Shown here in pieces: positions 39,605 through 46,364 of a DNA stretch of 46,364 nt. Numbering within the stretch: position 1 is the first letter of the stretch; each line of letters begins with the position of its first letter. Position numbers and translations under genes: made by a program. Under the pieces are notes generated by a model that saw only the letters and a list, made by a program, of their open reading frames with translations, searched no databases and was not told the DNA's origin. Origin of the DNA: an uncultured Christensenella sp. (GTDB lineage: Bacteria; Bacillota; Clostridia; Christensenellales; UBA1242); assembly GCA_905203645.1 (NCBI GenBank), contig CAJKWP010000001.1, forward strand, positions 1 to 46,364, given 5' to 3'.

Positions 39605-39793
39605 AGTAGTCCTTTTGTTTATTACTTTAAAAGTATATGTATATTATATCAAAAAATTGATTATAAACAACTAAAATCCGTAATATTTTCAAGATAAAAA
39701 TTATAGAATATTTTATCATTTTATGCCTAGTTTTAATCAAACGCTTTATTTTTGTACTTTTGATAGTAAAATGAAATTGACAAGGAGATGAAA

Positions 39794-41245
39794 ATGATAG
39801 AATTGACTAAATTGCTTCAAGGGATAGATTTTCAAGCAAAAGGGAATATGAAAAACATCGAAATAAAAAATGTATGTTTTAACAGTAAAGAAGTCAAAAG
39901 GGGCTATTTGTTTGTATGTTTGAAAGGCGTAAATACTGATGGACATGAATATTTCCTTGAAGCCGAGAAAAATGGTGCAGTCGCTATCGTTTGTGAACAT
40001 TGGCTAGACAGTGATTTGCCACAAATCTTGGTTGAAAATACAAGAAAGACGTTGGCTCTTCTTTCTGCCAATTTTTATGGCAATCCCGCAAAAAAACTTA
40101 AACTGATCGGTATTACTGGGACAAATGGAAAAACCACCACAACAATGGTAGTAAGGGATATACTTATCCAAAACAACAAAAAGGTTGGTGTTATAGGTAC
40201 ATTGGGTTATTTTATCGACAAAAAGCATTATGTTTGTGATTTGACAACTCCAGACCCGATGCGTTTACATAAAATTTTTTCAATTATGCTTGAAAAGGGT
40301 GTAGAGTACGTTGCCATGGAAGTATCGGCACATGCTATTGCATTGGAAAAAATACATGGATTGGAATTCGTTGTCGGGGCTCTTACAAATATAACTCAAG
40401 ATCATCTTGATTTTTTCAAGACAATGGACAATTACATAAAGACCAAGTTTAAATTTATGACATCGCCAGCACTGAAAACATCTTTGCTTAATGCGGATGA
40501 CGATTCGGTACATTTTTTGGAAAACGATATTTCATTCACTTATGGCATAGTTCAACCATCTGATTGTTTTGCTATGGATTTGTGTTTACAAATGGGCAGA
40601 AGCAGATATATTCTTAATTTGTTTGATAATGTAATAAATATCGACACAAAACTTTCGGGTGTATTTAATGTTTACAATGTATTGCTCGGAAGTGCGATTG
40701 CTTGTATACTGGGGGTTGATACAAAAATTATACAGTTGGCAATTTCCAAGATGAAGCCAGTTGAAGGCAGATATAATGTAATAAATACGAACAACGGAAG
40801 TGTAGTCATTGATTTTGCACACACGCCTGACGGACTTGAAAATATTTTGAAAAGTATAAGGCAAACTTCTAACGCAAAGATTGTAACAGTGTTTGGGTGT
40901 GGTGGCAATCGCGACAATAAAAAAAGACCAATTATGGGAGCAATTGCTGAAAAATACAGCGATTTTTGTTTTGTAACAACTGACAATCCAAGATTTGAGA
41001 ATCCAGACTTGATTGCGGAAGATATTTTGGATGGAATGAAAAACAAAGATGTCGTAGTTGTAGAAAATGATCGTAAAAAAGCAATAATGTTGGCACTTGA
41101 AAAACTTGACAAAAACACGATAGTGGCAGTTTGCGGAAAGGGTGGAGAAAAATATCAAGACATAAATGGTGTAATGTCACCATTCAATGACGTTACAATA
41201 GTAAAAGATTGTTTGAAGGAACTAGGGTTTAAAATATTGAAATAA
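39794..41245 (+). CDS. murE: UDP-N-acetylmuramoyl-L-alanyl-D-glutamate--2,6-diaminopimelate ligase
   Basis: GITGTNGKTTT P-loop. The DNPR motif (TTDNPRFE) suggests meso-DAP specificity. ATG at 39794 is better spaced from AAGGAG (39782-39787) than the track start at 39788. Confidence 0.93.
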   Translation: MIELTKLLQGIDFQAKGNMKNIEIKNVCFNSKEVKRGYLFVCLKGVNTDGHEYFLEAEKNGAVAIVCEHWLDSDLPQILVENTRKTLALLSANFYGNPAKKLKLIGITGTNGKTTTTMVVRDILIQNNKKVGVIGTLGYFIDKKHYVCDLTTPDPMRLHKIFSIMLEKGVEYVAMEVSAHAIALEKIHGLEFVVGALTNITQDHLDFFKTMDNYIKTKFKFMTSPALKTSLLNADDDSVHFLENDISFTYGIVQPSDCFAMDLCLQMGRSRYILNLFDNVINIDTKLSGVFNVYNVLLGSAIACILGVDTKIIQLAISKMKPVEGRYNVINTNNGSVVIDFAHTPDGLENILKSIRQTSNAKIVTVFGCGGNRDNKKRPIMGAIAEKYSDFCFVTTDNPRFENPDLIAEDILDGMKNKDVVVVENDRKKAIMLALEKLDKNTIVAVCGKGGEKYQDINGVMSPFNDVTIVKDCLKELGFKILK

Positions 41246-41301
41246 TGTTCAAATAAATATTTTAAATTTGCACAGCATATTTATAGTACATGGAGAAATA
41301 A

Positions 41302-42291
41302 GTGGAAAAAAATATTATTGCCTTTATTCTTGCTTTGCTCATAGCAACAATTGTCGCACCTTTTATAATAAAGTACACAAAACAACTTAAAGCATCCCAA
41401 ACAATTTTGAAGTATGTCAAAGAACATAGTGGAAAGCAAGGAACACCTACGATGGGGGGAATTATATTTTTAACTTCATTTTTGGTTGTTAATTTGCTTC
41501 TGCTTGGAAATGACAGTACGTTATCGTTTGTAAGTTTGGCATCTACCATTGCATTTGGGATACTTGGCTTTTTGGATGATTTTATAAAAATTCGATTCAA
41601 ACAAAATGAGGGGCTCAAAGCATATCAAAAAATAATTGGACAAGTTGGTATATCAATAATTCTTGCATACTTCGTTTATCGTTTTGTTGGCAGTGAAGTT
41701 TTTTTGCCATTCACTTTGACCAAAGTTGATTTTGGTTTTTGGATTATTCCTTTTGTTGTTTTTGTTTATCTGGCAATGGTAAACAGTGTAAATCTTATTG
41801 ATGGTCTTGATGGATTATGTAGTGGTACATCTATTTCTTATATACTAGCAGTAGTATTATTTTTAACATTATTTGCACAAAAGATGGGGTTTGTGGGTTT
41901 GCAGATGGCAGAAATAAATAATCTTGTTATGTCGTGCTGTATCTTGATTGGAGCATTGTCAGGATTTGTTTTGGTCAATTGTTTTCCAGCCAAAATATTT
42001 ATGGGTGACACTGGTTCATTGGCTCTAGGAGGTTTTTTGACATCGGCTTTGATATTCAGTCAAAACCCATTTATGATAGCATTATTCGGCATTATGTTCG
42101 TAGTTACAGCTTTATCGGATATTATCCAAGTGTTTGTGTTCAAAACAAAACATAAGCGTGTTTTCAAAATGGCACCATTACATCATCACTTTCAAATGTG
42201 TGGTATGCATGAAAATCGAATTGTCGCAGTATACATAGTTATAACTGTGGCAGTAAGTTTGATTTGTATTTATTTGACCGCAGTTTTGTAA
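41302..42291 (+). CDS. mraY: phospho-N-acetylmuramoyl-pentapeptide transferase
   Basis: 329 aa with a GTG start after TGGAG. NLIDGLDGL, MGDTGSLALGG, APLHHHF. Confidence 0.95.
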   Translation: MEKNIIAFILALLIATIVAPFIIKYTKQLKASQTILKYVKEHSGKQGTPTMGGIIFLTSFLVVNLLLLGNDSTLSFVSLASTIAFGILGFLDDFIKIRFKQNEGLKAYQKIIGQVGISIILAYFVYRFVGSEVFLPFTLTKVDFGFWIIPFVVFVYLAMVNSVNLIDGLDGLCSGTSISYILAVVLFLTLFAQKMGFVGLQMAEINNLVMSCCILIGALSGFVLVNCFPAKIFMGDTGSLALGGFLTSALIFSQNPFMIALFGIMFVVTALSDIIQVFVFKTKHKRVFKMAPLHHHFQMCGMHENRIVAVYIVITVAVSLICIYLTAVL

Positions 42292-42299
42292 GGAGATTT

Positions 42300-43586
42300 A
42301 TGAAACTTAAAAATGTTCCTGTGCTAGTTTATGGTTTGGGAAAAACTGGCATGGAAACTATAAAATTTTTGCAAAAAAGAAAAGCAAACGTTTTTATTTT
42401 CGATGACACAAGTTTTTTGAAAATTCCAAATACTCAGTGGTTGAACGAGCAGTGCGATTTGTCATTCTTAAAATTTGTGGTTGTAAGTCCTGGGATTGGT
42501 GAAACCAAGTTTTTGAACAAATTGAAACTTTTCAAAATTCCAGTTTACAGCGAATTTAAATTTGCTTGTCAGTTTTTGAAAACAAAGCTCATTGCGATAA
42601 CTGGAACAAATGGAAAAACTACGACGGCAAGTCTTTTGGGAAAAATATTGAATGATGCTGGCAAAAAGACTATTGTATGTGGAAATATAGGCAATCCGTT
42701 GATAAGTTGTATTTGCAGACAAAAAGAGTACAAATTTATAGTATGTGAGGTAAGTAGTTTTCAACTTGAAAATTTGGGAGATGTCAATTCATACATATCG
42801 GTTTTGTTGAATATCAAGCCTGACCATTTGGAAAGACATAAAACATTTGAAAATTATCAAGAACTCAAATTTTCGATATTCAAAAAACAAAAGAAAAGAT
42901 CGTTTGCAATCGTGAACAAAAATCTGAAAAATAAATATTGCTTGCATGGATTTCAAAACAATGCAATTACTTTTTCTGCTTATGAACAAGCTGATGCTTA
43001 TATGTATGGCGCCAATCTTGTCTACAAAGATGTGTCGATTGATACAAAAAAATTGAACTTGTTTGGCAAAAAAAATTTTGAAAATATTTTGACGTGTATG
43101 ATCGTTGCAAAGGTTTGCAAAATAAAACCTGTAGTTATTGTTGAAAGCATCACATCTTTCAGGGGATTGGATCACAGAATTCAATTTGTAAAAGAAATTG
43201 GTGGTGTAAAATATTTTGACGACAGCAAAGCAACAAATCCCGATAGTACAAATTGTGCACTGGAAATTTTTGACAAAAATGTAATTTTGCTTCTTGGGGG
43301 ATATGACAAGGGGTTGGATTATACTTCAATATTTGTTTCTAACAAAAATATCAAAGCGTTGATTGCTTTTGGGCAGGCAAAAGATGCGATTGCCCTTTGT
43401 GCACAAAAAAACAACATTGACAAGATAGTGAAGTGTAACAAATTAAAAGATGCAATACTCAAATCTAACGAGATTGGGCAAAGTGGGGATATTGTATTAC
43501 TTTCTCCTGCCTGTTCGAGTTTTGACGAATTTGAAAATTTTGAAAAAAGAGGGGAGTACTTTGCTGATTTTGTGAATGGTTTATAG
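42300..43586 (+). CDS. murD: UDP-N-acetylmuramoylalanine--D-glutamate ligase
   Basis: 428 aa from the ATG at 42300 (AAGGAG at 42290-42295). GLGKTG Rossmann motif, GTNGKTTT, DDSKATN. Confidence 0.93.
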   Translation: MKLKNVPVLVYGLGKTGMETIKFLQKRKANVFIFDDTSFLKIPNTQWLNEQCDLSFLKFVVVSPGIGETKFLNKLKLFKIPVYSEFKFACQFLKTKLIAITGTNGKTTTASLLGKILNDAGKKTIVCGNIGNPLISCICRQKEYKFIVCEVSSFQLENLGDVNSYISVLLNIKPDHLERHKTFENYQELKFSIFKKQKKRSFAIVNKNLKNKYCLHGFQNNAITFSAYEQADAYMYGANLVYKDVSIDTKKLNLFGKKNFENILTCMIVAKVCKIKPVVIVESITSFRGLDHRIQFVKEIGGVKYFDDSKATNPDSTNCALEIFDKNVILLLGGYDKGLDYTSIFVSNKNIKALIAFGQAKDAIALCAQKNNIDKIVKCNKLKDAILKSNEIGQSGDIVLLSPACSSFDEFENFEKRGEYFADFVNGL

Positions 43587-43594
43587 GAGAATGT

Positions 43595-44818
43595 ATGAAA
43601 AATAAATTTGTACAGGCTTTCAGTTTGAGAAAAAGACAAGATGACAGAAAAATAAATTTTGGCAGTATTTTCAAACTGGACAAAACTTGTTGGGTTATTT
43701 TGATAAGTGTTTTGCTTCTTGCGGTATTTGGATGCATTATGGTTTACAGTGCAAGCTATTATCTTTCATCACTGGCTGGCAATAAGTACAGGTATCTTAT
43801 AAAGCAAATTGTTGGTGTTGTGCTTGGTATTGTGGGAATGATGTTCTTTTCGATCTTTCCATATCAAAATTTGAAAAAGTTTAAATGGTGGGCAGTTGTA
43901 ATTTCAATGCTGCTTTTGGCTTGCGTTTTTATACCAGGAATTGGAATTGAAAATTATGGCGCAAGAAGGTGGATTGGCTTGGGTGGATTTTCTTTTCAAC
44001 CAAGTGAAATAGCCAAATTCGCACTAGTTTTGTTTTGTGCATGTCACTTGTCTGAACATTATGATAATGTAAAATCATTCAAGGCGTTGTTGCCTGTATT
44101 GTTGGTTGGTGGCATATTTTGTGTTATGGTTATTTTGGAACCCAATATGAGCATTACAATGTGTATAGCAATAACTCTTATTGTGATGCTTTTTGTGGGC
44201 GGTATAAGTTTCAAACATTTTTCATATCTTGCAGTTCCATCTATGGCAATGGTACCCATTTTGATATTTATGGAACCGTACAGGATAAAAAGGCTTATGG
44301 CATTTTTGGATCCCTGGGCATCGCCAAAGGGTGAGGGATTTCAACTTATACAATCTTTGTATGCACTTGGCTCGGGCGGTTTGTTTGGAGTTGGGCTTTT
44401 TTGTTCCAGACAAAAATACTTGTTCTTGCCATTTTGTGAAAGCGACTTTATTTTTTCGATAATAGGTGAAGAGCTTGGATTTTTTGGTGCGCTTGCGTTG
44501 CTTATTGTATTTTTGATTTTGGTAATATTTCTGATTAAAACAGCATGCGGTGCCAAAGACAGATTTGGTTGTTTGCTTGCTGTTGGCGTGGCAACTGTTA
44601 TAGCTGTTCAAGTGCTTATAAACGTTGCAGTGGTGACAGGTTCAATTCCGCCAACAGGTCTGCCTTTGCCATTTGTGTCAGCAGGAAGTACATCACTTGT
44701 AGTTTTTATGAGTGCAATAGGTGTTTGTATCAATATAAGAAAAGAATCAAAAAGTTATGTATTTGATGAAGTGTCAAAAAACAATAAAAAAACTGTTTTA
44801 ACATCAGGAATTGAGTAG
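43595..44818 (+). CDS. ftsW: SEDS-family peptidoglycan glycosyltransferase FtsW (or SpoVE)
   Basis: 407 aa, about 10 TM. FQPSEIAK and PLPFVSAGSTSL motifs. Lies downstream of murD. Confidence 0.9.
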   Translation: MKNKFVQAFSLRKRQDDRKINFGSIFKLDKTCWVILISVLLLAVFGCIMVYSASYYLSSLAGNKYRYLIKQIVGVVLGIVGMMFFSIFPYQNLKKFKWWAVVISMLLLACVFIPGIGIENYGARRWIGLGGFSFQPSEIAKFALVLFCACHLSEHYDNVKSFKALLPVLLVGGIFCVMVILEPNMSITMCIAITLIVMLFVGGISFKHFSYLAVPSMAMVPILIFMEPYRIKRLMAFLDPWASPKGEGFQLIQSLYALGSGGLFGVGLFCSRQKYLFLPFCESDFIFSIIGEELGFFGALALLIVFLILVIFLIKTACGAKDRFGCLLAVGVATVIAVQVLINVAVVTGSIPPTGLPLPFVSAGSTSLVVFMSAIGVCINIRKESKSYVFDEVSKNNKKTVLTSGIE

Positions 44819-44836: not shown

Positions 44837-44865
44837 TTGACTTTTGGATAAAAATTTTGTAATAT
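44837..44865 (+). promoter_or_regulatory. promoter of the large ncRNA
   Basis: TTGACT (44837-44842), 17 nt, TAATAT (44860-44865). The predicted start falls about 44871-44873, exactly where the terminal helix begins. Confidence 0.55.
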
Positions 44866-44870
44866 AAACA

Positions 44871-45467
44871 TGGAGGCGCAGTATTCTAGTCGCTTTGGTT
44901 TGCTTGGAAGATGAGTTTAAAGGCATCAAAGGGCACAACTGTGAAGTTTCTGGTGCATGCTTCGGTTGCCCAAATTGGGGTGTGTGCTGGGAGTTAAGAT
45001 TTTTGGGCGCGTTGTAACGGCATACAATTTCCGTCCCAACTTTCGTGGAGACCCAGTTGGGTGGGAAAAATATTATTTTTTTCCACTCCCTGGATATGAA
45101 CCTGCAGTGCGGTGATAAGCTGTGTGCAGAGTAGCCTGCTTTGCGTGACATTTGGGGATGTTCCACAAAAACAAATCGTCAAAAATGGCCAATTTGTTGG
45201 TTTGTTCGGTCTGAAACATATGTTGCAAAAAAAGCTAATGGCAAATCAAAGTGTCAAGGAAAACTTCTAGACTGTTGCTTGTCAAACATATCAGGGATTA
45301 TAGTGTGGTCTAAGTGGCGATTCGGTGCAAAAGTGATTTTCAAAAGGAAACTGCTTACACGGCAACGGTAAGTAAATCATGCAGGGAAAACCTACCGAAC
45401 CTATGCCGCAAGGTTTACTTGATATGTTGCCTCCAAAATTTGTTTGTTATGACCTTATGGTCTTTTT
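44871..45467 (+). ncRNA. large (about 600 nt) structured noncoding RNA, OLE-like candidate
   Basis: Lies in a 667-nt gap with no credible CDS. 49 G+C in 44931-45030 versus 23 in 44701-44800 (hand count). Terminal helix TGGAGGC (44871-44877) / GCCTCCA (45429-45435). Internal helices: 44931-35/44967-71, 44989-94/45085-90, 45035-41/45055-61, 45061-70/45077-86, 45360-64/45404-08, 45366-70/45393-97. G-U pairs fit only the + strand. Weak hairpin plus T5 at 45451-45467. A multi-TM protein gene follows. Confidence 0.6.
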
Positions 45468-45485
45468 ATATAAAGGATGTAAAAT

Positions 45486-46160
45486 ATGGAAGAACCCAAA
45501 CCGCCTTTACAAAATCAAAACAAGAAAAAAGTAAAGGCAACTGCAAAAACTCAAAAATGGTGGATGTGGCCCGTCAAGATTTTCTTTTTGTCATTGGCAT
45601 TATCACTGGTGTTCAGTATAGGCAGTGAATTTGTAATGTCTGCATCTGGAATAATTATTTCTTCGCTAATCATTGTTGTATTGATTGTAATTGCAGTTGT
45701 TGCAGACATGGTAGGTGTGGCAGTTACTGCGTGTTCGGTTGAACCTTTCACTGCAATGGCTTCAAGAAAGGTACGTGGTGCAAGGGAAGCACTTGTACTT
45801 TTGAAAAATGCGGAAAAGGTAAGTAGTCTTTGTAATGATGTACTTGGTGATATTTGTGGTATCGTCAGTGGTGCTGCAGGGGCGTCGATTGTAACAAGAA
45901 TAACAATCAATATGACGTCAAATGCTGGGCTTATACTGATAGGTGCACTCTTGAGTTCATTTATTGCAGCCTTGACTATATTTTCAAAAGCGCTTGGCAA
46001 AAAATATTCAATTGATAACTGCAACAAAATCACTTTGCTTGCGGGCAAGATGTTAAGTCCATTCATTGGCAAAGAAAAGATAGATATAAAACCAAAACCC
46101 AAAACAGAAAAGGTTTTGATTGAAGTAAAAACTGAAACAGACAAAGATTTGAAAAATTAA
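45486..46160 (+). CDS. multi-pass membrane protein downstream of the large RNA (OapA-like candidate)
   Basis: 224 aa. AAGGA RBS. Basic N-terminus (KKKVKATAKTQK), about four hydrophobic helices, a D-x-x-x-D inside a helix (NDVLGDICGIVSGAAG) and a charged Lys-rich C-tail. Its own terminator follows. Confidence 0.7.
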   Translation: MEEPKPPLQNQNKKKVKATAKTQKWWMWPVKIFFLSLALSLVFSIGSEFVMSASGIIISSLIIVVLIVIAVVADMVGVAVTACSVEPFTAMASRKVRGAREALVLLKNAEKVSSLCNDVLGDICGIVSGAAGASIVTRITINMTSNAGLILIGALLSSFIAALTIFSKALGKKYSIDNCNKITLLAGKMLSPFIGKEKIDIKPKPKTEKVLIEVKTETDKDLKN

Positions 46161-46173
46161 AATTTAACAACAG

Positions 46174-46202
46174 AAAGAAGGGGAGATACCTTCTTTTTTT
46201 TT
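46174..46202 (+). terminator. rho-independent terminator
   Basis: AAAGAAGG (46174-46181), ggagata loop, CCTTCTTT (46189-46196), then a T-run. Confidence 0.8.
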
Positions 46203-46364
46203 GAAACAAATTTTGTTTTGCAAACAAAACCGTTACGATTAATAACTCTATCAGTTTTATATACTGATGGACTGATAATATCATGCTGGTTATCCTTTTG
46301 CTCTTTTGAAGATACAAATGTTCCTACTCCTTTTTTTCTATACAAATATCCTTCAGTACACAGT

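Follow-up and report, generated by a model that had tools for sequence, protein, structure and literature searches.

At positions 45486 to 46160 of the window, by which we mean the whole 46,364-nucleotide stretch of uncultured Christensenella sp. DNA that we analyzed, an open reading frame (ORF) lies directly behind a large RNA. An earlier note, made from the letters of the DNA, had suggested that the encoded protein could be an OapA-like membrane partner of this RNA. The locus therefore raises the question of whether the protein is OapA and, if it is, what the protein and the RNA might do together in a very small genome.

OapA, or OLE-associated protein A, is reportedly the product of BH2780 (WP_010898928.1) in Halalkalibacterium halodurans, and its characterization is said to go back to Puerta-Fernandez 2006, Block 2011, and Harris 2018/2019. 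The OapA gene is the commonest immediate downstream neighbor of ole, and the protein has four predicted transmembrane (TM) helices, binds OLE RNA cooperatively, and is required for the membrane localization of the RNA (PMC12265935). Judging from the defining features of the family and from co-occurrence with OLE, we conclude that the ORF is very probably oapA and encodes an OapA ortholog (probability about 0.96). The OapA family is already known and well studied, and this locus is an ordinary ole-oapA pair.

The oapA coding sequence and its product

The gene and its putative ribosome binding site lie at the following positions.

45486..46160, plus strand: oapA coding sequence, 224 aa plus stop codon (ORF list, 1314 homologs, OLE adjacency and co-occurrence)
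45472..45477, plus strand: AAAGGA, a Shine-Dalgarno-like sequence 8 nt before the oapA ATG (read from the sequence)

The start codon is ATG, and the gene is single-copy. The earlier note had described a 224-aa protein with a Lys-rich N terminus, about four hydrophobic helices, and a charged Lys/Glu tail at the C terminus, and the ORF list, residue counts, and structure prediction bore out each of these features. Seven of the N-terminal 27 residues are K or R, the C-terminal 35 residues hold 9 K/R and 7 D/E, and hydropathy and an AlphaFold2 model gave four long helices (residues 27 to 50, 55 to 82, 109 to 142, and 147 to 177). The model was built from a 23-sequence alignment and had a mean pLDDT of 71 and a pTM of 0.58. 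It also predicted two short helices in a basic loop (86 to 93 and 99 to 107) and disordered tails with a pLDDT below 50 (residues 1 to 17 and 195 to 224), so that the protein would end about 50 residues after TM4, within the disordered tail. The motif to which the note had drawn attention, D118-V-L-G-D122, is the sole D...D match in the 224 aa, and the small-residue face ICGIVSGAAGAS directly follows it, as claimed.

We found 1314 homologs of the protein at an E value of ≤0.001, nearly all of them unnamed and from metagenome-assembled genomes (MAGs) of Clostridia/Bacillota. Down to 35 to 45% identity, these homologs have the M-E start region and the invariant motifs in common. Searches of Pfam, NCBIfam, and PDB sequences with the protein itself, and of PDB sequences with a profile of 23 homologs, matched nothing meaningful. 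The missing sequence matches are as expected because there is no public HMM for OapA (supplement of PMC11332333), and neither Pfam nor NCBIfam contains an OapA model.

Invariant residues of the family

We compared the protein with its homologs in an alignment of 23 sequences (A1) and in a larger alignment of 79 sequences taken from genome loci. D74, D118, G121, D122, C124, G129, K168, and K172 were invariant in both. The conserved segments are encoded as follows.

45705..45707, plus strand: codon of D74, an invariant Asp in TM2 (78/78 in the 79-sequence alignment; invariant in A1)
45765..45785, plus strand: codons of R94-K-V-R-G-A-R100, the basic loop, a conserved positive cluster (K95 and G98 invariant in A1)
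45837..45851, plus strand: codons of the DxxxD motif of OapA, D118-V-L-G-D122, which lies at the cytoplasmic end of TM3 (D118, G121, and D122 each 79/79)
45987..46001, plus strand: codons of K168-A-L-G-K172, an invariant Lys pair in TM4 (K168 and K172 each 79/79)

The pattern D..GD is encoded at every one of the 80 closest homolog loci. In the larger alignment, G98 is present in 77/79 sequences and K95 in 69/79, and the family form of the loop, RKVRGAK, is nearly invariant in both alignments. A conserved positive cluster has been described on the cytoplasmic face of OapA (PMC12265935). Its counterpart here would be RKVRGAR, which the positive-inside rule places in a cytoplasmic loop.

The DxxxD motif of H. 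halodurans OapA is strictly conserved and formed by D100 and D104 (PMC11332333, PMC9723947), which correspond to D118 and D122 here. The H. halodurans OapA mutant PM1, carrying both D100A and D104A, is dominant negative (PMC9723947, PMC7936274), and the earlier note was therefore right that conserved TM aspartates are functionally important. It did not mention D74, which is a third invariant Asp within the membrane (in TM2), or the invariant Lys pair K168 and K172. The window protein resembles its H. halodurans counterpart in being small and in having about four TM helices. At 224 aa, it is slightly longer than that protein of about 21 kDa, and the extra length comes from a Lys-rich extension at the N terminus and from the disordered Lys/Glu tail.

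OLE RNA upstream of oapA and transcription of the pair

The large RNA that had been placed directly upstream of the gene is OLE RNA. The features that bear on it and on transcription of the pair are these.

43595..44818, plus strand: ftsW/spoVE-like gene, the upstream neighbor, at the end of murE-mraY-murD-ftsW (ORF list, terminator scan)
44857..45449, plus strand: ole gene, encoding a shortened OLE (ornate, large, extremophilic) RNA (Rfam RF01071, 395.8 bits, E 6e-113, model positions 1 to 616)
45451..45467, plus strand: weak 4-bp hairpin GACC-UUAU-GGUC (45451-45462) and then UUUUU, between ole and oapA (read from the sequence)
46172..46202, plus strand: intrinsic terminator after oapA with a 10-bp stem, a 7-nt loop, and a U-run (fold of -12.5 kcal/mol, z = -3.81; also in the terminator scan)

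OLE RNA is the sole Rfam match within the whole window, and the gathering score of its model is 50 bits. The gap between ole and the oapA ATG is 36 nt, and both genes are on the same strand, so that oapA follows ole immediately as it does in H. halodurans. The alignment to RF01071 showed that the hairpin at model positions ~479 to 497 is deleted. This hairpin looks like the tip of P13, to which OapB binds in H. halodurans, and its loss appears to fit the published "variant 1" type; by the same comparison, the window OLE differs from that of H. halodurans in being shortened and in lacking the P13 tip. The window OLE is 593 nt long, and its 395.8 bits compare with 470 to 560 bits in most of the sampled phylum genomes described below.

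The terminator before oapA had been called weak, and we agree that it is weak at best. It consists of a 4-bp hairpin and five U residues and was not called by the terminator scan, and the intergenic segment between ole and oapA folds no better than its shuffles (-11.4 kcal/mol over 66 nt, z = -1.4). Efficient termination at this hairpin is unlikely. For the terminator behind oapA, 0 of 200 shuffles folded as well. After the ftsW stop codon at 44818, the terminator scan called no terminator before ole. Because the ole-oapA hairpin is weak and none was called between ftsW and ole, co-transcription of ole and oapA is plausible, perhaps together with ftsW and other upstream genes, on a transcript that would end at 46172-46202. 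Polycistronic transcription has been reported in H. halodurans (PMC12265935). The promoter search returned five promoter-like sites, with 4.4 expected, and did not establish an ole promoter; the OLE match begins within one of these sites (44837-44865).

The ole-oapA pair is at the end of a murE-mraY-murD-ftsW run (window 39788-44818), and the H. halodurans pair differs in being next to an isoprenoid/DNA-repair cluster. Published neighbors of ole include cell-wall synthesis genes (PMC12265935). Downstream, the contig ends about 200 nt past oapA, and an open-ended minus-strand ORF (46157-46363) runs off its end.

Association of OapA with OLE across genomes

We scanned 40 loci, taken from the 80 closest homolog loci, with Rfam and found OLE just upstream of the homolog and on the same strand at all 40, in each case as a full-length match (238 to 517 bits). 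The earlier note had asked whether homologs always adjoin a similar large intergenic region, and at these loci they all adjoin OLE. We also analyzed 301 genomes sampled evenly from the phylum of the window, using a protein profile for OapA and the Rfam model for OLE. OapA was found in 216 genomes, OLE in 216, and both in 215. The single genome with only OapA (G192) has a weak profile match (E 5e-10), and in the single genome with only OLE (G089), the OLE matches are three fragments and the protein profile matches nothing. Wide occurrence of the family away from an adjacent structured RNA, which the note had named as a reason for doubt, was not seen, since OLE was missing from only 1 of the 216 OapA-matched genomes. 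H. halodurans OapA is likewise confined to company with OLE, as the family is in 215/216 profile-matched genomes of our sample. The idea that the protein is an OapA-like partner of the upstream RNA is thus upheld by the identity of the RNA, by the 40/40 loci, and by the 215/301 genomes with both.

We compared the tables by eye for 34 genomes. In 33 of them, the two matches share a contig and a strand, and OapA follows OLE after 12 to 203 nt; in the remaining genome, G225, an assembly of 360 contigs, OapA and OLE are on separate contigs. The genes that flank ole-oapA are not conserved, and among the 80 loci, the murD-ftsW context is common only to the closest two (L002 and L013). The conserved unit is therefore ole plus oapA.

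Two observations concern distribution within the sample. Of about 290 genomes labeled "same phylum," 215 carry both OLE and OapA. All eight genomes labeled "same class" as the window genome (G027, G074, G115, G154, G190, G222, G251, and G278) have neither.

Relation to CNNM transporters

The Pfam CNNM family (PF01595) gave no match to the window OapA at an E value of ≤1. It was matched weakly by 18 of the 23 homologs (best E 5e-9), with profile positions 1 to 129 falling over TM2-TM4. The A1 profile aligned to four full-length CNNM proteins of 462 to 477 aa (E 1e-8 to 1e-10), which were weak OapA-profile matches from a second phylum sample made up of small genomes; OapA was found in 2/149 genomes of that sample. 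In a Foldseek search with the window OapA model, the top six PDB fold matches were all TM domains of CNNM/CorB/CorC proteins (7M1T, 7M1U, 7CFF, and 7CFG), with probabilities of 0.98 to 1.00 but modest TM-scores (0.39 to 0.56) and E values of 0.03 to 0.6. H. halodurans OapA also has 7M1U as its top reported structural match (PMC11332333), and in both proteins the likeness to CNNM is weak and the best structural match is to CorB (7M1U/7M1T). The earlier note had regarded clear homology to an unrelated transporter or enzyme family as an argument against OapA; we found none that was clear, just this published weak likeness.

TM2-TM4 of OapA align with CNNM domain positions 1 to 129 and share their predicted fold, and a juxtamembrane stretch with short helices, "mA..KvkGak.a," is almost literally common to OapA and the full-length CNNM proteins. 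Around this shared frame there are clear differences. OapA has an extra N-terminal TM helix, needs an RNA partner, and in the window form has no further domains, whereas CNNM proteins carry a tandem CBS pair and a CorC/HlyC domain. The full-length alignment also pinpoints invariant OapA residues, D74, D118, D122, K168, and K172, at conserved CNNM positions. D74 takes the place of the Ser of "S..ETA," D118xxG121D122 that of "xxIGN," and K168 and K172 those of the E and K of "GE..PK," a stretch of which only the Lys is kept. The conserved Pro of the last CNNM TM helix is Gly171 in the window OapA (F-S-K168-A-L-G171-K172). According to the CorC and CorB structure papers, the Ser, Asn, and Glu of these helices are reported to coordinate Mg2+; if so, OapA has a remodeled polar site at the same place.

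The host genome

The host assembly is 1.04 Mb in 66 contigs, is 97.8% complete, and has a GC content of 35%. A whole-genome PF01595 search found no CNNM-domain protein in it. H. halodurans likewise has no MpfA-type protein, and the result fits the published anticorrelation of OLE/OapA with MpfA (PMC11332333), the same study that reports Mg2+ hypersensitivity of ole/oapA mutants.

In H. halodurans, OapB and OapC are both essential. The host differs from it in having a reduced genome of about 1 Mb, no OapC, and apparently no OapB. No L7Ae-family protein (OapC/YbxF/YlxQ) was found in the host genome, which therefore has no OapC/YbxF. Pfam gave only two KOW matches there. The matching open frames are 148 and 183 aa long and probably encode L24 and NusG rather than OapB, a protein of about 100 aa. 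A regular expression modeled on YbzG found no OapB in the genome, and given this result and the probable identity of the two KOW matches, OapB is likely absent. OLE and OapA thus seem to be the only parts of the OLE ribonucleoprotein (RNP) that the host has kept. With OapC missing and OapB probably missing, the OLE complex may work somewhat differently here. Reduced gut lineages such as TANB77 and RF39 lack OapB and OapC, and their OLE RNAs are shortened "variant" forms in which the P13 end often has no site for OapB (PMC11332333). This pattern of reduced TANB77/RF39 genomes without OapB and OapC is already published, and what we would add to it is the residue-level reading and this genome.

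Alternative explanations

We weighed the OapA assignment against the idea that 45486-46160 is a spurious or mis-started ORF over noncoding sequence and against the idea that it encodes a stand-alone transporter. A 197-aa ORF on the opposite strand (45551-46144) overlaps oapA and could be taken to favor a spurious call. The Shine-Dalgarno sequence and the terminator are in place, however, and the invariant motifs and M-E start region common to the 1314 homologs form a conservation pattern that already excludes a mis-called ORF, so we give this idea next to no chance. The second possibility is that the protein is a truncated CNNM/MpfA/CorB-type Mg2+ exporter that works independently of the RNA and is next to OLE by accident. 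The weak CNNM homology of its relatives, the CNNM-like fold, and the lack of another CNNM protein in the host genome would all suit an exporter. The window protein itself, however, falls below the Pfam CNNM threshold, has the extra N-terminal TM helix, has neither the CBS/CorC domains nor the CNNM Pro, and carries the OapA-specific DxxxD. An accidental neighbor would also not be expected to belong to a family found with OLE in 215 genomes, against one weak OapA-profile-only and one OLE-only genome, and adjacent to it at 40/40 loci. We consider the stand-alone exporter very improbable.

Another explanation accepts the protein as an OapA ortholog and makes it purely a membrane anchor or scaffold for OLE that transports no ion, with the intramembrane acidic and basic residues serving RNA insertion or protein packing. 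Experiments on OapA show only RNA binding and membrane localization (PMC7936274, PMC12265935), and in cryo-EM models OLE P3 appears to span the membrane, where it would need shielding (PMC12265935). The replacement of the Glu of the CNNM "GE..PK" by the invariant K168 points the same way. Against a pure anchor stand the predicted CNNM-like fold, the three invariant Asp residues in the TM2/TM3 region that align to conserved CNNM positions, and the absence of another CNNM protein from the host, as well as the published anticorrelation with MpfA and the published finding that ole/oapA mutants are hypersensitive to Mg2+ (PMC11332333). We regard the pure anchor as unlikely. The identification of the gene as oapA is the same under this explanation and under the one developed below, in which OapA handles a cation.

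A possible mechanism

By analogy with H. halodurans, OapA would be required to bring OLE RNA to the membrane and would bind it cooperatively, with at least two OapA molecules per RNA, at palindromic sites near P2 and P4a; the DxxxD aspartates would be functionally needed, as they are there. The positive-inside rule predicts an N-in/C-in topology, in which the N terminus, the RKVRGAR loop, and the Lys/Glu tail would be cytoplasmic and could contact the RNA. TM2-TM4 may form a CNNM-like (CorB/CorC/MpfA) fold, and D74, D118, and D122, with K168, would then occupy the region in which CNNM transporters hold Mg2+. In such an arrangement OapA would probably handle a divalent cation, with OLE RNA in place of the missing CBS/CorC regulatory domains. 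The Breaker laboratory has reportedly proposed OLE RNA as a stand-in for the CBS/CorC domains of MpfA-type proteins.

For this host we can go one step further, to a proposal that we see as having about even chances. The OLE RNP of the cell would be a natural two-part core, made of OapA and a shortened OLE without the P13 tip and sufficient for function. The cell would have no other cation device of the CNNM type, and D74, D118, and D122 together with K168 would replace the Ser, Asn, and Glu of CNNM proteins. A very small genome that seemingly has only OLE and OapA could serve as a source of a minimal pair for structural and reconstitution work. The additions made here are small, namely the mapping of OapA residues onto CNNM proteins and a tiny genome that seemingly keeps just the OLE-OapA core. 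The broader question is the biochemical function of OLE RNA and OapA, in which an RNA that spans the membrane and a proposed device for the Mg2+/stress response may play a part, and the locus leaves that question unchanged.

The relation between the OLE and CNNM systems can also be seen in other small genomes. Two small "Bacilli" MAGs of 0.9 to 1.4 Mb, G301 (loci L075/L084) and G303 (locus L081), each contain an OapA-OLE pair alongside a full CNNM-domain protein, which scores 165 and 132 bits, respectively. Since these two genomes hold both systems, the anticorrelation between OLE and MpfA is not absolute in reduced genomes.
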